Virus record (IMG/VR): IMGVR_UViG_3300020041_000035
Span: 1-6,403 of that record
From: a virus
Length of the DNA stretch: 6,403 nt
Reading direction: 5' to 3' (one strand)
Below, piece after piece: positions 1 through 6,403 of this stretch. Position numbers and translations under genes: made by a program. Position 1 is the first letter of the stretch. Every line of letters starts with the position of its first letter. The notes beneath the pieces are model-generated. The model was not told the origin of the DNA, did not search any database, and saw only the letters and a program-made list of their open reading frames with translations.

Positions 1-121
1 AATTCTTTGCCTGTTCCTCAGAGATCACACCCTCACGAATCATATTCCAATATTGTGCACCATTCATTTGCAACTGTATGCGCTTTTCCTCGGGGAGATA
101 CATATTCAAAATCTCCTGAGC
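1..121. repeat. Terminal redundancy, identical to 6283..6403. This is the circular-genome overlap, not a biological repeat.
   Basis: Direct comparison: aattctttgcctgttcctcagagatcac...atctcctgagc occurs at both ends. Position 1 corresponds to 6283 and position 121 to 6403. Confidence 0.97.
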
Positions 122-685
122 ATCGTTGCGAAGAAGAAGATTAGCTCTCTGTGCGATCGCAACATCCGCTTGTCTCTGAGTAAAATAAGTATCTGCCATA
201 GTCTTTCCAATCTGAGATTCATAGGTAGGTGCACCGTACTGATCAAGTAGATCAGACTCAGTATTAGTTTTACGAGCATCAGACATAGATTTCATGGCAG
301 CAGCATAAGAAGCAACATCACCAATCATATTAGTAGGCGTAAACTGATAAGGCGAACCACCTGAACCAGAAGCACCTGATACAGTATTAGCAGAAGTAGA
401 AGAAGCTGTACCAGCAGAACCTCCATTCATCATCAAATAAGGATTTAAACCAGCTTCCTCTAAGCGTGCACGCTGATTTTTAGCGGAGTTCCATTCGTTC
501 GTAGCGTCAAACATTGATTTAGCAAAATCACGTGATTTCTGGGATTCAGAACTTGCCCATTCGTTCTGAATCCGCTGCATCTCAAGCTGATGTTTACGAT
601 TCTTAGAACCTTGCCGGTTATTTCCAATAGCATTAACAACACCGCTGGCTAAAGAACCAGCAGCGCCGATAGCTGCACCAATCAT
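1..685 (-). CDS. VP2: Minor capsid / DNA pilot protein VP2, N-terminal 5' portion. The ORF runs off the window start and continues at 6403..5903 because the genome is circular. The reconstructed protein is 354 aa.
   Basis: ATG at 685..683 overlaps the upstream gene's TGA (684..682) as ATGA. I checked every minus-strand codon from 685 down to 2 by hand and found no stop. It is absent from the ORF track because it has no stop inside this copy. The translation begins MIGAAIGAAGSLASGVVNAIGNNRQGSKNRKHQLEMQRIQNEWASSESQKSRDFAKSMFDATNEWNSAKNQRARLEEAGLNPYLMM. The ...AGLNPYLMM block followed by a Gly/Ser/Ala-rich linker is typical of microvirus VP2. It is in frame with track ORF 5903..6391 (685-109=576, divisible by 3; position 109 equals 6391). 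Confidence 0.85.
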   Translation of the reverse strand, partial: MIGAAIGAAGSLASGVVNAIGNNRQGSKNRKHQLEMQRIQNEWASSESQKSRDFAKSMFDATNEWNSAKNQRARLEEAGLNPYLMMNGGSAGTASSTSANTVSGASGSGGSPYQFTPTNMIGDVASYAAAMKSMSDARKTNTESDLLDQYGAPTYESQIGKTMADTYFTQRQADVAIAQRANLLLRNDAQEILNMYLPEEKRIQLQMNGAQYWNMIREGVISEEQAKN

Positions 686-1200
686 TCCGTAAACGACTGG
701 GCGGTAGATTGAGTAGATTGAGTAGACTCAGTAGATTGAGTAGACTCAACAGCAGAGGCTGACAAAGAAGCAGCATAAGCCTGCAAATCAGATTCTAAAG
801 ATTGACCTTCAGAAAGAAGATAATTAAGCCAAGAAGCCATTTCAGTAGCCGACTGAACATTGCGATCCTTGCAATAGTCAAGCAAGAAGTCATCATTGTA
901 GTTACGCGTATAATTCGAAGAGCGAGGAACAAGACTATTCATATAACGACGTAACTGAGTCTGATTCATATTGTCAATAGCTTTTTGACCAAACAAAATG
1001 CCATAGTCTGAACAGAACGTAACAGAACCGTCTGCATTTTGATCAAAAAGAAAATCACCAACAGGATTAGGTTCAGGCAAAACACCCTGAGCAAGCATTT
1101 CGGGAGTTACAACACACCGACAACTCTGAGAATGATCAGAAATATCAGAATTAAGCGAATATTTCGCAAAACCTCTTAAAGGAATATTTTTTTCAGACAT
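682..1200 (-). CDS. Hypothetical 172-aa protein between VP1 and VP2. It may be an internal scaffolding (VP3-like) protein, judged from position only.
   Basis: ATG at 1200, 11 nt after the VP1 stop. Its stop overlaps the VP2 start (ATGA). The C-terminus is acidic and Ser/Thr/Gln-rich. I recognise no catalytic motif, so the function call rests on synteny alone. Confidence 0.75.
   Translation of the reverse strand: MSEKNIPLRGFAKYSLNSDISDHSQSCRCVVTPEMLAQGVLPEPNPVGDFLFDQNADGSVTFCSDYGILFGQKAIDNMNQTQLRRYMNSLVPRSSNYTRNYNDDFLLDYCKDRNVQSATEMASWLNYLLSEGQSLESDLQAYAASLSASAVESTQSTESTQSTQSTAQSFTE
704..748. repeat. Five tandem 9-bp units (gtagattga x3, gtagactca x2) inside the 3' end of the 172-aa gene. They encode a STQ/STE tripeptide repeat (...VESTQSTESTQSTQSTAQ...).
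   Basis: Read directly: gtagattga gtagattga gtagactca gtagattga gtagactca. The unit length is a multiple of 3, so copy-number change stays in frame. Confidence 0.95.
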
Positions 1201-1211
1201 AACGATAAATA

Positions 1212-3068
1212 TTAATAAGGTAAACCATCGTAAGACAAATTACGAGCAACACGGACATCAAAATCACAATTGACAAGCAATTGATCAGTATTCCATGAAC
1301 CATCAGCGACAACACCGAAAATAGGATTGACAACAGATGGATTTATTTTAAACCACGTGTAAAAACCAAAACGCGCACTACCGGGAGCATTATTATTATC
1401 GAAATAGATTTTTAAATAATCCTGTCCGATCGGAGCAGTCCAAGATTTTAAAGTGTCAATGAAAGCACCTCGAACAACATCAACAGACGTTTTCCAACTG
1501 ATGTAGCGAGGAACATAACCGAAAGGTTTAGACTCTTGAACCGGCTGAACATCGCTAGTATTTAGCAACGAATAAGACGGAAGTTCTTCAAAACCGATTG
1601 AATCCATCTCAGGAACAGGCCATGAATCACCGTCAACAGTGGTCATAAATTGAAGATCAGGGCCGGTAGGCGCATAATCCAACAGAGGAACTGCGTGATA
1701 GATACACATCAAAACACCATGTTCGGTAGTTTTAAACGTTTCAGGTTTATTTACACGATAACCGCCAAGACCTTTACCTCTAATAATAGCTTCATCAGAA
1801 ACAAGGTTTGTATTTTCAACAGCGGAAATATCAATCGAACCATCAAAACCACAAACACGAGTAGCACGATGGGAAGTAATCGGATTTGGAGAAACACCAA
1901 AGTGAGCCTTAACCTGTGAAGCATAATTTTGACCGTTCGCCTGAGCAATCTCTTTCCACTTCTGCAAACATTCAGCAGCACGAAGTTGAAGAACAGAAAA
2001 TTTTGCATTCAATTGACCTGACAACCGTGCATCGAAGTCAGAACCATCTACATTAGCAGGATTAAAAATACGACCAAAAGCATTCGTACTAGTAGCAAAA
2101 AGATAACCATTGTCTTTATTACTAACATCTTCCTGTACAGTAGTAACCTGCTGAGCATCATTAATACCAACAGGATTATAAAGACGAGATTGCGAACGAA
2201 TACCCATACCATCACGACCACCGTAACCAACTGGCATATTACCTGAAACTAAAGCGGTACCAGTAACACCAACTTTCATAGTAGAAGTATCAAGGCCAAC
2301 AGAAACGGCAGCAACATCACCAAACTGAGTGTTAGGCATAGCACCCATATAAAGATCTTTGTTCCAGTTAGCATATCGAAGTTCAAAAACTGAATCGTTC
2401 GGATTAGTATCAAAAAGATCTTTTGAAAAAGCTACAGGTGTAGAATCCTCACCGTTCCAAAAGTCGCAGTTATAAGTCCAAGGCTTATTTACTTCCCATT
2501 GAGATTGCCGATAGTAATCGTTATAAATCTTTTGATAGGCATAGAACGGGAAAGCAGATATACGAAGATTGGAAAGCGTCTTAGACGGGTCAATTTCACC
2601 TGTACCTAAATAATTAAAAAGCTTGTAGAAACCACTTGAACGAGCAAAACCAAACATATTATTATGATATGTAGAAGCCTGAACATTAGTAACAGCATTG
2701 TGCAAAGTCTGAAGATCAACCCAAGGAAGTTTGCGATTGAAAGTAATACTTTGAGCACTTGATGCAGCATAGTTAGGTTGATTTTCCATTGACATAATTG
2801 CTTCGTTTGAGTTTCTATACATCAAATGTAAAGGAACAAAGAACCACTCGTAATACTCACGAATACGGGTAAATGCAGAAGTGTCAACAGGTTGAGTACG
2901 GGTAAACCATTCCTGCGAAATCTTAAACTTATCACCGGGAAGGCAGAACTTCCAATAGACAGGCAGAAGTTCACCGACCTTAGCAGTGAAAGAGTTCTTG
3001 TTGCCAAGATCAAAACCAGAGCGACGAGGTTTATTCTTAATGTCGCCATACGAAAAAAGACCAGCCAT
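1212..3068 (-). CDS. VP1: Major capsid protein VP1 (Microviridae F-protein family), 618 aa
   Basis: ATG start at 3068. The N-terminus reads KPRRSGFDLGNKNSFTAKVGELLPVYWKFCLPGDKFKISQEWFTRTQP. This matches the conserved microvirus VP1 pattern (PRS-FD-S...F.A G.L.P......LPGD.F.I). The size is typical of gokusho/alpavirus-type capsid proteins with a large insertion loop. Confidence 0.96.
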   Translation of the reverse strand: MAGLFSYGDIKNKPRRSGFDLGNKNSFTAKVGELLPVYWKFCLPGDKFKISQEWFTRTQPVDTSAFTRIREYYEWFFVPLHLMYRNSNEAIMSMENQPNYAASSAQSITFNRKLPWVDLQTLHNAVTNVQASTYHNNMFGFARSSGFYKLFNYLGTGEIDPSKTLSNLRISAFPFYAYQKIYNDYYRQSQWEVNKPWTYNCDFWNGEDSTPVAFSKDLFDTNPNDSVFELRYANWNKDLYMGAMPNTQFGDVAAVSVGLDTSTMKVGVTGTALVSGNMPVGYGGRDGMGIRSQSRLYNPVGINDAQQVTTVQEDVSNKDNGYLFATSTNAFGRIFNPANVDGSDFDARLSGQLNAKFSVLQLRAAECLQKWKEIAQANGQNYASQVKAHFGVSPNPITSHRATRVCGFDGSIDISAVENTNLVSDEAIIRGKGLGGYRVNKPETFKTTEHGVLMCIYHAVPLLDYAPTGPDLQFMTTVDGDSWPVPEMDSIGFEELPSYSLLNTSDVQPVQESKPFGYVPRYISWKTSVDVVRGAFIDTLKSWTAPIGQDYLKIYFDNNNAPGSARFGFYTWFKINPSVVNPIFGVVADGSWNTDQLLVNCDFDVRVARNLSYDGLPY

Positions 3069-3073
3069 AAAAA

Positions 3074-3283
3074 TTAATCTTTAAAGTTAAACTTAAGTTG
3101 AATTATCTCCGTTTCTGAAAGAGCGTCAAGAGGTCTAACAAAAACATCAATATTTTGCGAAATACGTTTATCCTCAATTTCATATAAATACTGTTTAAAA
3201 TAATGAACATAACTTTCGGGTATCCCGTCTACTGTATCATTATGAATAGACGGGAAACTCTCAATATCAATACCGTAGGCCAT
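3074..3283 (-). CDS. Hypothetical acidic 69-aa protein
   Basis: Its ATG (3283..3281) shares one base with the TGA of the upstream peptidase gene (TGATG). Its stop lies 5 nt before the VP1 ATG. It exactly fills the gap in an otherwise gap-free operon. No recognisable motif. Confidence 0.6.
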   Translation of the reverse strand: MAYGIDIESFPSIHNDTVDGIPESYVHYFKQYLYEIEDKRISQNIDVFVRPLDALSETEIIQLKFNFKD

Positions 3284-3678
3284 CAGTTATCTTTTACAAT
3301 AACTTCATGCCGATAAGTAGGAGAATAGGACACATGAACAAACTTCTTCTTCTGATAATAGATCAATTGATCAAAAGGAAGATCAGATTCAGCGATAAGA
3401 TCAAAGAGTGCTTTCGGGTCATCACAACGAAGATCAGCAGCCAAACCTTGCATGTGTTGCGAAGTAGAAACACCACCAACTAAGCGGTTAAGAAACGGAG
3501 TCCGGAAACCTGAAGTAACAACAATAGGCTTACCGTACTTCTCACGGACAGGGTCAAGAATCCAACGGCAAAGCAAGGTAAGACGCTGAATATCGTCCCA
3601 AGAAGGAATGTTATTTTCCTGTGCGGTAGACGCAGTTGAGATCAACTCGTCAAAACCAAAAAATTTAGGTGTATACAT
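3283..3678 (-). CDS. Peptidase M15 family (Peptidase_M15_3 / PF08291-like) zinc D-Ala-D-Ala or L-Ala-D-Glu type cell-wall peptidase, 131 aa
   Basis: Signature SGFRTPFLNRLVGGVSTSQHMQGLAADL (S-x-H-x-x-G-x-A-x-D zinc/catalytic block) plus the downstream FVHVSY histidine block. The upstream KYGKPIVVTSG segment also fits the family. ATG start at 3678. Confidence 0.9.
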   Translation of the reverse strand: MYTPKFFGFDELISTASTAQENNIPSWDDIQRLTLLCRWILDPVREKYGKPIVVTSGFRTPFLNRLVGGVSTSQHMQGLAADLRCDDPKALFDLIAESDLPFDQLIYYQKKKFVHVSYSPTYRHEVIVKDN

Positions 3679-3679
3679 A

Positions 3680-3832
3680 TCAATCGGGATTATCTAAGAC
3701 TTTAATAATATCAAGCAACTCAACAACATAACCTTTACTTAAGTAGGTATTAACACAAAAGGAACTGATAACGCAACGGGTAGACTCATTACAATAATGC
3801 AAAACAGCCAAATAATAAATTTTCTTTTCCAT
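3680..3832 (-). CDS. Small hypothetical protein, 50 aa, not in the ORF track (below its length cutoff): MEKKIYYLAVLHYCNESTRCVISSFCVNTYLSKGYVVELLDIIKVLDNPD
   Basis: The ATG at 3832..3830 lies 6 nt after the VP4 stop (3839..3841). The TGA at 3682..3680 lies 1 nt before the peptidase ATG. It therefore fills the only other intergenic gap on the coding strand. Contains 4 Cys. No homology is recognisable by eye. Confidence 0.5.
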   Translation of the reverse strand: MEKKIYYLAVLHYCNESTRCVISSFCVNTYLSKGYVVELLDIIKVLDNPD

Positions 3833-3838
3833 AATATT

Positions 3839-5449
3839 CTAATATTTATCACATTCGGCAATCAATGCGCAATTCAAATCATTGAGATATTTGTGCTTTA
3901 TACGCTGTCGATTATCTGCAGCAACCTCTGCATAGGCAGCTCGACAAAACGGAGATAAAGCCAGCACTTCACGATAAGAATTACGCATCAACTCACCGTC
4001 AGTAAGAGGATAAAAATATCTAAAATCAACCTGAGTAGACAGATAATTATTACGAGACCAAGACTCAACCTTTACAAGCTGATCATGAAGATGTTTAGCG
4101 TCCATATAGCTATAAAAGGCATAGATCGTTCGGAACGCCCTACGTAATTGACCATAAAAAGCAATATGATTAGACGGAACAGTTATCCAATGATCACAAA
4201 GATTGCGATAAGCCAAAAACAAGCGATACACAGCAGAACATCCCTCTAATTCGCTAAAATTGAGATACAAAGATAAACGACAAGCATTGTAGATGAAACG
4301 AAGCGTTTCAGGGGCATTGTCCAAACTGTGATCAACTTGCAAATATTTTTTAATAACAAAGAAAGTACGCTTAGCCTGCTCAAACAAAGTCACTTCATCG
4401 AGGAATCCAAACCTTGCGAGGACTTGAGGTATTTTAGAGACAAAGATCGCAGTTCTAACGTTAGAATCAACATCCGATACAGAAGAGCGGTCAAGGATGG
4501 GGTATAGTCGATTGATAAGCGACCGCTTAGGCCGGCAAAGTGTAGGCTTACCACCGAGAGAGAGGTAAATTCCATCAACGAACTTATCGAATACTTCTTC
4601 GTTTTCTTCGGGCTTAAAAGCTTCGATAAACGAGCGTTCCGCAAAATGCTGTGAAAAACGTCCGAATGGCGCGATTTTTCTATTACATCTATAAAACTCG
4701 GGAAGACAGTGAGAGCTATTAAGGTATCCCGCAACATACGATGAAGCGGAAGACCATACACGTTGCGTATCTGAATTACCAAAGCGCCATGTCTTATCCA
4801 CAAGCTGTCCAAATACTTGGGCGAGCCGTTCCGAGTCAAAGAAAAATAGGAGATGGAAATGCGGACGGAATGTTTTAGGACCGTATTCTCCGACAGTGTA
4901 CGTATGAATCTTTTCATTTGTATATTTTTTTATTTGTTGATTAATTCTTTTATGAAACAATTGAACATCTCGGTAGTTAAGGTAGGGTAACAAATCGCCC
5001 ATATTAGGATATTTAACAACAGAACGACCATCAGGATAAACAGTCCTATCAAGATGTGTTTTAGCCAAGAGATCGGTAACTGCTTCATCACTGAGATTAG
5101 TAGGATAATCAAATTCTTCATCACAAAAAGACATTTTACAATTATATCCTTGAGATGTAACATACGTGTAAACATGATCACGAGGTACACAACAAAGATG
5201 GTAAGAATCATCAAGTTTATAAAACCTTGCAACAGGTATATGCTCTGTGGCATAAGTCAAAGTTACAAAGAAACAACAACGAGAAGATGCAAGCTGAATA
5301 TTACAACGAAGTTCCTTCTGAATGGCTTTATTGGAAAGACACACCTCACATGTACCACATTCAACATATATGGGATCACCTGTATGTTTGTTTTTAACAA
5401 TAACAGGATGCAAACAAGAGCAATATGGTTTAACTATTGGACTAATCAT
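3839..5449 (-). CDS. VP4: Replication initiation protein VP4 (rolling-circle HUH endonuclease), 536 aa from ATG 5449. The track ORF begins at an upstream in-frame TTG at 5488.
   Basis: All three RCR motifs are present: motif I CCFFVTLTYA, motif II RPHFHLLFFF (HUH, codons at 4861..4853), and motif III SSYVAGYLNS (two Tyr spaced Y-x-x-x-Y as in phiX174 protein A). The N-terminal Cys cluster CLHP...ECGTCEVC is typical of microvirus VP4. I prefer ATG 5449 (MISPIVKPYCSCLHP...) to TTG 5488, but the start is not proven. Confidence 0.93.
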   Translation of the reverse strand: MISPIVKPYCSCLHPVIVKNKHTGDPIYVECGTCEVCLSNKAIQKELRCNIQLASSRCCFFVTLTYATEHIPVARFYKLDDSYHLCCVPRDHVYTYVTSQGYNCKMSFCDEEFDYPTNLSDEAVTDLLAKTHLDRTVYPDGRSVVKYPNMGDLLPYLNYRDVQLFHKRINQQIKKYTNEKIHTYTVGEYGPKTFRPHFHLLFFFDSERLAQVFGQLVDKTWRFGNSDTQRVWSSASSYVAGYLNSSHCLPEFYRCNRKIAPFGRFSQHFAERSFIEAFKPEENEEVFDKFVDGIYLSLGGKPTLCRPKRSLINRLYPILDRSSVSDVDSNVRTAIFVSKIPQVLARFGFLDEVTLFEQAKRTFFVIKKYLQVDHSLDNAPETLRFIYNACRLSLYLNFSELEGCSAVYRLFLAYRNLCDHWITVPSNHIAFYGQLRRAFRTIYAFYSYMDAKHLHDQLVKVESWSRNNYLSTQVDFRYFYPLTDGELMRNSYREVLALSPFCRAAYAEVAADNRQRIKHKYLNDLNCALIAECDKY

Positions 5450-5452
5450 GTA

Positions 5453-5460
5453 CAAAGATA
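5453..5460 (-). promoter_or_regulatory. Possible Bacteroidetes-type -7 promoter box (TATCTTTG, matching consensus TAnnTTTG) immediately upstream of the VP4 ATG
   Basis: This is the only exact TAnnTTTG match I found on the coding strand of the 5450..5902 non-coding region. It would place the transcription start at or within the ATG (leaderless). The nearest upstream TTTG is about 25 nt away, longer than the usual -33/-7 spacing, so support is weak. Confidence 0.25.
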
Positions 5461-5577
5461 AACGATAAAAATCGAAATGTGCAAGCAAACGTTTTTTTTT
5501 TAACTATAAATTAACATTAAGAACATACCTATATATATAGTGATGTCACTTTTGCTAATCATGAACAAGGAAGTTTG

Positions 5578-5603
5578 AATCGGAAATAACAGTTAATCCG
5601 ATT
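5578..5603. promoter_or_regulatory. AT-rich stem-loop with a 7-bp perfect stem (5578..5584 aatcgga pairs with 5597..5603 tccgatt) and a 12-nt loop. Candidate origin or nick-site hairpin.
   Basis: Pairs verified base by base. Three further inner pairs around a CTG triloop are possible. It sits 1 nt from a GCGAAGC mini-hairpin. The function is inferred. Confidence 0.55.
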
Positions 5604-5604
5604 T

Positions 5605-5611
5605 GCTTCGC
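5605..5611 (-). other. GCGAAGC heptamer on the packaged-sense strand (mini-hairpin motif), copy 1. The flanking T and A can add a third pair.
   Basis: The plus strand reads gcttcgc, so the minus strand reads GCGAAGC. d(GCGAAGC) is known as an exceptionally stable DNA mini-hairpin. Confidence 0.5.
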
Positions 5612-5662
5612 ACAAAAGTGAAGAGAACTACGTACCAGAATAAAATAACTATGCAGACCAAC

Positions 5663-5669
5663 GCTTCGC
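5663..5669 (-). other. GCGAAGC heptamer on the packaged-sense strand, copy 2, at the AT-proximal edge of the GC-rich island
   Basis: The plus strand reads gcttcgc at 5663..5669. A degenerate third copy (GCGAAGA) lies at 5727..5733. Confidence 0.5.
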
Positions 5670-5687
5670 TAAGACCCTTCCGGGGGA

Positions 5688-5706
5688 CCACGGCTACGGC
5701 CCGTGG
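5688..5706. other. Stable GC hairpin: ccacgg/ccgtgg (6 bp), plus a C-G pair closing a 4-nt loop, with one bulged base
   Basis: Pairs are 5688-5706, 5689-5705, 5690-5704, 5691-5703, 5692-5702, 5693-5701 and 5694-5699. The loop reads UACG (UNCG class) in window-plus sense and CGUA in gene sense. Confidence 0.6.
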
Positions 5707-5730
5707 ACGGCCGACGTTTTTTTCATTCTT

Positions 5731-5762
5731 CGCTCCCGCTCGACATAGAGATTTAGGGAGCG
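5731..5762. other. Hairpin with a 7-bp GC stem (5731..5737 cgctccc pairs with 5756..5762 gggagcg), an inner 3-bp helix (5739..5741 with 5748..5750) and a 6-nt loop
   Basis: Pairs verified base by base from the sequence. Confidence 0.6.
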
Positions 5763-5902
5763 TGCCTGCTCCCCCCAGAGGGGCCCCCCATGCGCTGGAC
5801 AGATAGAGGGGACAGGACAGAGGGTGAAGCAGGAGGGCCAAACGGCTAAGGGCCGACTCATCACGAGCCAGCCGATAGCAATTAACCAACAAAACAAACA
5901 CA

Positions 5903-6403
5903 CTACCTACGATAACGTTGACGAGTAGAGGAATAACCTTGATTATCGTCAAATTGCTCTGTCATCGAACGACCTTCACGACGGAAATTACCAAACTTCA
6001 ATAGCGAACCAACAGCGTTAGAAAGACCATCAATAAACTTGCCTGCATTGTTAATACCGCGATCCCAACGTGCTTTAACGGGGTCTTGAAGCCAACGATC
6101 CATCTTACCTGTACGAAAACCAACATCATTAGAAAATTGGGAATAACCACGGTTAAAAGCAGCCTCATTCTCCTTAGCTGTACGAGTAGCGTCGATAACA
6201 GCATCGGCAGTTGAACGAGCGATTTTATTAGAAATATGCTGTCCCTGAGTACGTGCTTCAATCTCCAATCGGGAAGCAATCAAATTCTTTGCCTGTTCCT
6301 CAGAGATCACACCCTCACGAATCATATTCCAATATTGTGCACCATTCATTTGCAACTGTATGCGCTTTTCCTCGGGGAGATACATATTCAAAATCTCCTG
6401 AGC
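5903..6403 (-). CDS. VP2: VP2 pilot protein, C-terminal 3' portion, with stop TAG at 5905..5903. Its upstream end is cut by the window and continues from 685..1.
   Basis: Same reading frame as 1..685 across the circular junction. The track ORF 5903..6391 merely starts at an internal TTG, and codons 6392..6403 remain open. The protein ends ...QGYSSTRQRYRR. Confidence 0.9.
   Translation of the reverse strand, partial: AQEILNMYLPEEKRIQLQMNGAQYWNMIREGVISEEQAKNLIASRLEIEARTQGQHISNKIARSTADAVIDATRTAKENEAAFNRGYSQFSNDVGFRTGKMDRWLQDPVKARWDRGINNAGKFIDGLSNAVGSLLKFGNFRREGRSMTEQFDDNQGYSSTRQRYRR
6283..6403. repeat. Second copy of the terminal redundancy (equals 1..121)
   Basis: Exact identity by direct comparison. 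Confidence 0.97.

Follow-up and report, generated by a model that had tools for sequence, protein, structure and literature searches.

What does a G+C-rich island do in the only sizeable non-coding stretch of a microvirus genome? The question is raised by IMG/VR record IMGVR_UViG_3300020041_000035, whose positions 1 to 6,403 (6,403 nt in all, hereafter the window) hold the 6282-nt circular genome of a microvirus; the same 121 nt stand at 1..121 and at 6283..6403 as a direct repeat, which is the assembly overlap of the circle. Every gene is encoded on the minus strand and, because Microviridae package the gene-sense strand, gene sense and packaged strand both correspond to the reverse complement of the window. 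Features described below are on the minus strand and written in gene sense unless the + strand is named. The non-coding stretch, 5450..5902, separates the gene for the pilot protein VP2 from the Rep gene VP4, and an initial annotation of the window had proposed that its island is a complementary-strand origin, a structured RNA, or a recently captured foreign segment. We found that the island is a conserved insertion with strand-specific hairpins and an enrichment of mini-hairpins, and we tentatively read it as an accessory single-strand initiation module acting on the packaged, gene-sense single-stranded DNA (ssDNA).

The island is a clade-specific insertion

Base counts gave 61 G+C in 200 positions at 5461-5660 and 138 in 220 at 5661-5880, exactly the jump that the initial annotation had reported, against a genome mean of 0.399. 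No 220-nt segment elsewhere in the genome exceeded 0.477, confirming that the island is foreign in composition, and 5450..5902 was indeed the sole sizeable non-coding stretch of the genome. For comparison, protein-guided and DNA-pattern scans of IMG/VR and metagenomes provided 26 distinct VP2-VP4 intergenic regions, which were aligned (alignment A3); hits that had matched the pattern by chance (L012, L013, L015 and most of L016-L068) were excluded. The 26 homologues belong to two lineages, with Rep ∼59% identical between them, and more distant relatives, whose VP4 is 26-43% identical, were obtained with a VP4 profile. The nearest isolate is the Bacteroides fragilis phage phiHBP1 (PV598014), with ∼75% identity over 48% of the genome and 83% over the island.

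Pairwise alignment with two relatives, L091 and L094, set the borders of the island proper at 5656..5852, a clade-specific insertion of 197 nt between GAGTCGG, which is the 3' arm of a terminator-type hairpin following VP2 (H1, GGCTGGCTC-GTGAT-GAGTCGGCC, 5851..5873), and TGCAT...TTATTTTATT, the former T-run of that hairpin. Because the alignment places the extra DNA there, the island can be described as an insertion between the stem and the T-run of H1, with the 3'-arm bases 5852 and 5851 belonging to the inserted DNA. In relatives without the island, the terminator stem (GAGTCGG) is joined directly to TGCATTTTATT. The distance from the VP2 stop to the origin-like domain described below is only 71-88 nt in these genomes, at 27-37% G+C, and the spacer holds a single hairpin with the same core as H1 of the window (CTGGCTCGTGATGAGTCGG; gcaCTGGCTCGTGATGAGTCGGtgc), followed by ATTTTATTT. 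When an nhmmer profile of A3 was run against the distant relatives, it matched only the AT-rich segment 3' of the island (∼5540-5650), with E values from 1e-10 to 1e-2; the island itself was never matched in them, and they had no comparable G+C peak upstream of VP4. Since several outgroup lineages lack the island, the parsimonious explanation is a gain in the ancestor of the phiHBP1-like clade, and because these relatives manage without it, the island is at most accessory, and not the essential complementary-strand origin of the group.

Conservation, mosaicism and origin of the island

A chimeric assembly was excluded, since the island is present in 26 independent assemblies, the cultured phiHBP1 among them, and the phiHBP1 genome was confirmed by polymerase chain reaction (PCR) and Sanger sequencing according to the paper describing it. 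Between the two lineages, nucleotide identity was 0.73 over the island and 0.87 over its core (5690-5789), reaching 1.00 for some pairs; the flanking gene ends were at 0.50 (VP2, 3' end) and 0.68 (VP4, 5' end), and the other non-coding parts at 0.38 (H1), 0.73 (origin domain) and 0.27 (promoter segment). Judged from sequence, the island likely has a function. It is also mosaic, with alternative versions of four short modules found in all combinations across both lineages, and with all four allele combinations present for several module pairs. Because the module versions occur in all combinations, recombination within these 200 nt must be frequent.

The suggestion of a recently captured segment was borne out as far as capture is concerned, since the island is an insertion relative to the outgroups, and failed as to its age, since DNA common to lineages with ∼59% identical Rep was not acquired recently. 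No donor was found: a 19-base invariant motif had no exact match in 185,579 species genomes, and blastn against plasmids was empty. A search of 5.8 billion proteins with the open reading frame (ORF) that spuriously crosses the island returned 20 clusters, all of them on contigs of ≤7.6 kb or from named Microviridae. A mobile element, either a miniature inverted-repeat transposable element (MITE) or a palindrome-associated transposable element (PATE) derived from IS200/IS605, was considered and rejected, with one copy per genome and no unrelated contexts in searches made at the exact-motif and protein levels only. A prophage attachment site was also rejected, since a VP1 profile (two conserved peptide patterns) found no VP1 relatives in the 185,579 species genomes, and no lysogens were found in the phiHBP1 paper. 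An imperfect 14-nt direct repeat (ACGGCTAAGGGCCG at 5842..5855 and ACGGCTACGGCCCG at 5690..5703, + strand) lies at the 5' border of the insertion and in the region of hairpin H6 (see below), in the window's lineage only.

Folding and conserved hairpins

The initial annotation had described the island as folding richly in gene sense. The complementary segments that it listed are present: 5688-5706 is a 6-bp inverted repeat, the two-tier hairpin at 5731-5762 has arms of 7 bp, and the long-range helix of 5765-5776 with 5822-5833 has 10 Watson-Crick pairs, one G.T pair and one mismatch. When folding was compared with that of dinucleotide shuffles, the region 5662-5880 gave z-scores of -0.02 (gene sense) and -0.68 (+ strand) as DNA, and of -1.81 (gene sense) and -0.58 (+ strand) as RNA, and the exact insertion, 5656-5852, gave +0.29 as DNA and -0.11 as RNA. 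The folding energy is thus no better than that of shuffled sequence, and the claim of exceptional folding is refuted; the appearance of rich folding is due to high G+C alone, since any sequence of such composition gives segments of this kind.

The same helices were then scored on the 26 homologues, where 89.0% of cells were paired, compared with 89.2% in shuffles, and one pair was changed on both sides, compared with 1.5 expected. The two-tier hairpin was broken in 6 of the 26 sequences, the long-range helix was 81% paired without covariation, and the CCCC/GGGG helix nested within it (5808..5811 with 5784..5787) had no covariation. The hairpin at 5688-5706 is uninformative in this respect because it is invariant in all homologues. 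Any pairing of the pyrimidine tract with the G runs was likewise rejected, as many registers are possible and only one-sided changes were found, and a G-quadruplex or i-motif was rejected by eye, the G and C tracts not being conserved in the phiHBP1 lineage.

An alternative set of helices, covering the island and the origin domain, gave 98.0% paired cells compared with 93.1% in shuffles, and 11 changes on both sides compared with 5.0; 0 of 500 shuffles reached any of these values, and slid controls were only 24-52% paired. The series begins with H1, which forms a hairpin of 9-13 bp in all 25 homologues covering the stretch, with covariation from Watson-Crick to Watson-Crick at five of the first 7 pair positions, many G.T pairs that are valid in gene sense only, and an RNA folding energy of -15.6 to -18.7 kcal/mol. 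H1 is followed by a polypyrimidine tract (GGCCCTCCTGCTTCAC and a C/T-rich stretch, 5797..5839), in which homologues differ mainly by C/T transitions and for which no supported pairing partner was found in the homologue alignment, and then by a G6-CCCC-TCT-G6 block (5771..5789), whose G runs range from G5 to G8 among homologues. These variable run lengths (A3 columns 141-162) suggest slippage.

Hairpin H4 (GGGGAGC-loop-GCTCCCT, 5755..5774) has loops of AGGCAC, AAG, TCGCAG or AAGCAT, and its cells were 100% paired in the 26 sequences, with one compensatory change (GGAGA/TCTCC in L052). It competes with the two-tier hairpin at 5731-5762 from the initial annotation, and is the better supported of the two. 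The 3' arm of H4 (5755..5760) forms part of a 17-mer, CTCCCTAAATCTCTATG (5744..5760), that is identical in 25 of the 26 homologues and whose remainder falls in no supported helix. The mini-hairpin H5, GC[GGGA]GC (5732..5739), is replaced by AC[GGGA]GT, GC[GGTA]GC or AC[GGTA]GT in homologues, and is followed by the invariant block ATGAAAAAAACGTC (5713..5726), in which an A7 run (5723..5717) reads as T7 on the + strand. H6 (CGGCC-GTCCACG-GGCCG, 5697..5713), which overlaps the previously listed hairpin at 5688-5706, has an invariant loop and was 100% paired, with one compensatory change (CCGCC/GGCGG in L001 and L062) and seven G.T cells but no A.C. Toward the 3' end of the island are the mini-hairpins H7, CCC[GGAA]GGG (5675..5684; GCC[GGA]GGC, CTC[GGA]GAG or CTC[GGGA]GAG in homologues), and H8, GCGAAGC (5663..5669; GCGGAGC in L026); the 3' end of the island exists as two alleles, only one of which carries H8. 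Another mini-hairpin, AC[GTA]GT at 5627..5633, lies outside the insertion and has the form AC[GAA]GT among other homologues as well as distant relatives. We also observed that two A-runs in gene sense are each followed by CGT, the invariant A7-CGTC of the island (5717..5723) and an A10-CGTT upstream of the VP4 promoter (∼5494..5503).

Because H1, H4 and H6 are always paired, carry compensatory changes and contain G.T but no A.C, the gene-sense strand is the one whose structure is selected. On the + strand, H6 followed by T7 looked like a terminator in a scan, one that would also be present in a primer RNA templated by the packaged strand. This candidate was rejected as a selected feature, because G.T pairs of six homologues in gene sense become A.C mismatches on the + strand.

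Mini-hairpins with GNA and GNNA loops

Most specific of all the patterns was a concentration, in the intergenic DNA, of very short gene-sense hairpins closed by C-G, of the form c[GNA]g or c[GNNA]g. Of the seven in the 6282-nt genome, five fell within the 414 nt between the genes (binomial p = 2e-5), a number that was not reached in any of 2000 dinucleotide shuffles; the opposite strand had no such motif. The motifs of the window's intergenic region are GCGGGAGC, CCGGAAGG, GCGAAGC, ACGTAGT and a second GCGAAGC, of which the first three are in the island and the second GCGAAGC is in the origin domain. Motifs of this form numbered 122 on the gene-sense strand of the 26 homologues, compared with 19 on the other strand, and were located in the same places with covarying stems (for example GC[GGGA]GC/AC[GGGA]GT, CC[GGAA]GG/CC[GGA]GG/TC[GGA]GA and GC[GAA]GC/GC[GAAA]GC/CC[GAA]GG). 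In distant relatives, 45 gene-sense motifs were counted near the origin domain, compared with 2 on the opposite strand, and the mini-hairpin of the origin domain took the forms GCGAAGC, GCGGAGC, GCGTAGC, GCGATAGC, GCGGTAGC and GCGAAAGC.

The loop variants GAA, GGA, GTA, GGAA, GGGA and GGTA, with GATA in addition in distant relatives, fit the DNA classes GCGNAGC and GCGNNAGC. According to a 2026 review, mini-hairpins of these classes lie at the primase start sites of the complementary-strand origins of G4, St-1 and alpha3 (PMC13037366), and the same class is found in RSF1010 ssiA and in the ssDNA promoters of N4; as DNA, such hairpins bind the single-stranded DNA-binding protein (SSB) poorly, and as RNA they are much less stable (PMC13037366). 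Since GGTA, GATA, GTA, GAA and GGA are not GNRA loops of RNA, the variants seen here would favor folding as DNA.

The neighboring origin-like domain

Outside the island, a conserved origin-like domain occupies 5547..5620. It has an outer stem of 8-9 bp (CACTTTTG/CAAAAGTG), an unpaired segment, CAAACTTCCTTGTTCATGATTA, and two inner hairpins, TGC[GAA]GCA (5612..5604) and a 7-bp AATCGGA/TCCGATT hairpin with a 12-nt loop (5603..5578). The z-score of its DNA fold was -3.47, and eight of its pairs were changed on both sides. The domain was matched by nhmmer in relatives with 26-43% identical Rep (e.g., L091:1532-1622, L087:1386-1492 and L077:1958-2039), where the outer stem, a GCGNAGC or GCGNNAGC mini-hairpin and the 7-bp hairpin are all found, the last with a lineage-specific loop. 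The Rep nick site could lie in the unpaired CCTTGTTCATGATTAGC of this domain, and the domain itself could be a complementary-strand origin of the G4 type. It may be a more important finding than the island.

In the L077 lineage, arrays of hairpins capped by C[GAA]G (GTCCGAAGGAC, GTCAACGAAGTTGAC, GGATTCGAAGAATCC and GGACACGAAGTGTCC) flank the origin domain at 1740-1960 and 2040-2190, and a further hairpin, acggTCCACGccgt, has the same loop as H6 of the island, with an A12 run after it. Neither these arrays nor other distant relatives showed homology to the island. In L018, an AT-rich motif, AATGTTAAT, is tandemly expanded between the origin domain and the VP4 promoter, corresponding to ∼5500..5520 of the window, where it weakly resembles the XerD arm of a dif site. 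A dif-like XerCD site was considered and rejected, since the resemblance (TTAATGTTAAT) is weak and AT-rich, is confined to a single lineage and does not fall within the island.

Transcription, coding capacity and gene layout

The consensus of the Bacteroides -7 promoter element is TAnnTTTG. The only such box in the non-coding DNA of the window is TATCTTTG at 5453..5460, which ends 4 nt upstream of the VP4 ATG (5449) and, by eye, is present in every aligned homologue that covers it, though this segment is just 27% identical between lineages. With so short a distance, the VP4 mRNA may have little or no leader; alternatively, translation may start at another codon. An island-specific promoter was rejected, since neither strand of the island contains a TAnnTTTG box. 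Flanked by the terminator-type hairpin H1 on one side and by the sole conserved promoter box on the other, the island is probably transcribed only little. The T-run of H1 is clear in relatives (ATTTTATTT) and is kept as T6 in the phiHBP1 lineage, which makes up half of the clade (TTTTTTGT); in the window it has been replaced by CTTAGCCGTTTGG through the insertion, and a consensus scan found no minus-strand terminator there. Since the insertion parts the H1 stem from its T-run in the window's lineage (CCCTTAGCCGTTTGG), read-through is plausible in these genomes.

When the whole window, the intergenic region and 10 homologous genomes were compared with Rfam at permissive thresholds, nothing came near a gathering score. 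The best match was to Proteo-phage-1 RNA (RF03044) at 5706..5799, with 18.4 bits compared with a gathering score of 42 (E 0.58 in the 401-nt search). It is a weak full-length alignment that includes the A-run and the CGGC after it, and the predicted Proteo-phage-1 helices had no covariation support. ARAGORN found no tRNA or tmRNA in the window. With no Rfam match near a gathering score, no promoter box in the island and no dominant fold, the structured RNA that had been proposed as one explanation of the region is not supported.

A test for protein coding, made for both strands, found no reading frame conserved among the homologues. In the phiHBP1 record (L001, PV598014.1), a 136-aa hypothetical protein annotated at 2326..2736 (minus) spans the island, and, given the frames of its homologues, this coding sequence (CDS) is probably spurious. 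The genes of the window include the Phage_F capsid gene (3068..1212), the M15 peptidase gene (3678..3283), the Rep gene VP4 (5449..3839) and the 3' part of the VP2 gene (5903..6403; stop TAG at 5905..5903), which runs on across the circular junction and is named after the phiHBP1 annotation and paper. A 172-aa ORF between VP1 and VP2 (682..1200, minus) has a short C-terminal Ser/Thr/Gln repeat (STQSTESTQSTQST) and no family match.

Discussion

Of the three proposals in the initial annotation, a complementary-strand origin is the best supported, by virtue of strand-specific hairpins with short DNA-type loops beside an origin domain, although the exceptional fold on which it had drawn is not there and the role would be accessory only. 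In the model that we tentatively prefer, the ancestor of the phiHBP1-like clade acquired a single-strand initiation module beside an origin-like domain that it already possessed. After the circular ssDNA has entered a Bacteroides cell and become coated with SSB, the G+C-rich hairpins H4, H5, H6, H7 and H8 would stay folded, several of them capped by c[GNA]g or c[GNNA]g loops of high stability, and would thereby exclude SSB. These hairpins, with the invariant unpaired blocks between them, would present an SSB-free entry site at which the host priming machinery could start synthesis. As the island has no promoter-like box, primase or PriA would be likelier candidates for this step than RNA polymerase. 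Given its position immediately 5' of the origin domain, the island would be displaced last in every round of rolling-circle replication, provided that the viral-strand nick is made in that domain.

Several known systems resemble such a module in part. The single-strand origins (sso) of rolling-circle plasmids are ∼160 nt long, strand-specific, cassette-like and host-specific, have a recombination site, and are not strictly essential. The island is like ssoA, ssoU, ssoT and ssoW in being a non-coding element of ∼160-200 nt that belongs to one strand and is shuffled as cassettes by recombination; it measures 197 nt, within the ∼150-300 nt expected of an ssoA-type element, has no conserved ORF, and is strand-specific in both its wobble pairs and its loop motifs. 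It differs from them in having no promoter-like element (no TAnnTTTG) and no similarity to plasmids, and its one resemblance to the CS-6 consensus (TAGCGT/A), TAGCGA at 5671..5666, is confined to one of the two 3'-end alleles. With the primase-dependent complementary-strand origins (oric) of G4, St-1 and alpha3, it shares a location in non-coding intergenic DNA of the packaged strand, several conserved hairpins specific to the viral strand, and the GCGNAGC/GCGNNAGC mini-hairpin, but there is no sequence similarity, the host belongs to another phylum, and the island is optional, being absent from relatives. The n' (PriA) primosome assembly site of phiX174 is likewise an intergenic hairpin region of the viral strand that is read as ssDNA, but has no similarity to the island, and the primosome components of Bacteroidota differ from those of E. 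coli. In the Ff phages (M13, f1), a terminator-type hairpin after the last gene, a structured region and the viral-strand origin follow one another in the same order as here, but the M13 minus-strand origin mimics an RNA polymerase promoter, and no such mimic is present in the island. Conserved intergenic hairpins with compensatory substitutions have been proposed as sites of negative-strand initiation, as yet unproven, in reekeekee- and roodoodoo-microviruses, where they consist of one or two hairpins of 13-64 nt rather than a G+C-rich insertion of 197 nt (PMC9865509).

Several observations weigh against an initiation module and limit our confidence in it. An essential function would be expected throughout the lineage, and ∼22 IMG/VR relatives have no island, the H1 hairpin in them adjoining the origin domain. 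Shuffled sequences fold just as well overall, as DNA or as RNA, and averaging of pair probabilities across homologues gave no dominant global fold. Most of the covariation signal in the alternative helix set comes from the neighboring origin domain; within the island there is about one compensatory event each in H4 and H6, together with allele-level changes in the stems of H5 and H7. The high identity between lineages may in part reflect recent exchange and not constraint. Two invariant blocks (CTCCCTAAATCTCTATG, ATGAAAAAAACGTC) are also unaccounted for by the model, as is the 5' half of the island with its pyrimidine tract and its G runs. Finally, the island has no sequence similarity to the origins of G4 or phiX174 or to any plasmid, and in a sensitive blastn search of 50,697 phage records for homology to a characterized origin, only phiHBP1 and two short matches with E ∼0.9 were returned.

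The main rival, to which we assign about half the weight given to the initiation module, is that the island acts at the RNA level, where transcripts reading past H1 would carry a cluster of 3' untranslated region hairpins that reinforces termination or blocks exonucleases, or would yield a small non-coding RNA. Gene sense is also mRNA sense, so that strand-specific G.U pairs fit this explanation equally well, the H1 stem is parted from its T-run in the window's lineage (CCCTTAGCCGTTTGG), some of the loops are GNRA, and the RNA fold of 5662-5880, with H1 included, had a z-score of -1.81. That value fell to -0.11 for the exact insertion, however, and the loops GGTA, GTA, GAA and GGA belong to classes stable as DNA and not as RNA. 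Furthermore, H1 of the phiHBP1 lineage keeps its T6, yet the island is equally conserved there, and neither an Rfam match near the gathering score nor a TAnnTTTG box was found in it. Somewhat less probable is a platform for protein binding, in which Rep or a host protein would recognize the invariant blocks and thereby enhance nicking, end the rolling-circle round, or couple replication to packaging. The long invariant blocks without pairing partners (CTCCCTAAATCTCTATG, ATGAAAAAAACGTC, GTCCACGGG and AGCCGTGG) do suggest recognition of sequence and not of shape, the island adjoins the origin domain, and the unrelated L077 lineage has, upstream of its own origin domain, a hairpin with the same TCCACG loop as the island. 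On the other hand, the blocks are identical across lineages in which Rep is only ∼59% identical, relatives with similarly large Reps do without the island, sites in duplex DNA would need neither 63% G+C nor a strong strand asymmetry, and no iteron-like repeat was seen beyond two weak repeats of 9-14 nt.

In an unlikely, though conceivable, reading, the island would be an autonomous cassette without coding function, spreading between Bacteroides microviruses during co-infection through recombination in the origin region, and would act on the host instead of simply priming, either as an ssDNA or RNA decoy for defense systems or nucleases or as a determinant of host range; in the latter version, the cassette would retarget which host machinery converts the ssDNA. 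A little less likely still is a selfish or neutral insertion, that is, a foreign or recombination-derived segment which persists or spreads at a recombination-prone origin region without serving the phage. Such an insertion would account for the absence from outgroups, the foreign composition and the high mosaicism, in which lineages that have diverged elsewhere share segments of up to 100% identity. It is harder to reconcile with retention in every member of a clade with ∼59% Rep identity, with the tight constraint on microvirus genome size, and with compensatory changes in the hairpins, which indicate selection; moreover, there is one copy per genome, the island was found only in contigs of ≤7.6 kb or Microviridae records, and searches of species genomes (with the 19-base motif) and plasmids were empty. 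We consider a small protein very improbable, whether the 136-aa CDS of phiHBP1, a 119-aa ORF of the window (5593..5952), or a micro-ORF starting from ATGAAAAAAACG. Stop-free gene-sense stretches do cross the island in all 26 sequences, and a CDS in GenBank and the 20 'protein' clusters of gene callers point the same way, but stop-free frames are unremarkable because they are expected in C/T- and G+C-rich DNA. Indels of 1 and 2 nt shift the frame between close relatives, H5 alleles of 21 and 22 nt coexist within each lineage, only 60 aa, over the most conserved DNA, can be aligned between the window and phiHBP1 ORFs, and there was no match in Pfam or PHROG. Codon 11 of the micro-ORF is TAG, CAG, AAG or GAG, and its ends are variable.

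A description of the island was not found in the searchable literature, and the phiHBP1 paper is silent on it. One consequence of the analysis is a correction of the probably spurious CDS in the phiHBP1 record. phiHBP1 is the first cultured member of the group, in which the island is a precise, deletable element of 197 nt in a tractable phage-host pair, and the adjoining origin-like domain, which is broadly conserved and carries a DNA mini-hairpin of the G4/St-1/alpha3 kind, is equally open to direct testing. Microviruses of Bacteroidota are very abundant in the human gut, and how they start complementary-strand synthesis is not known. If the island is indeed a single-strand initiation module, it would represent a known functional kind in a phage group and a host phylum in which the initiation of the complementary strand has been unstudied.

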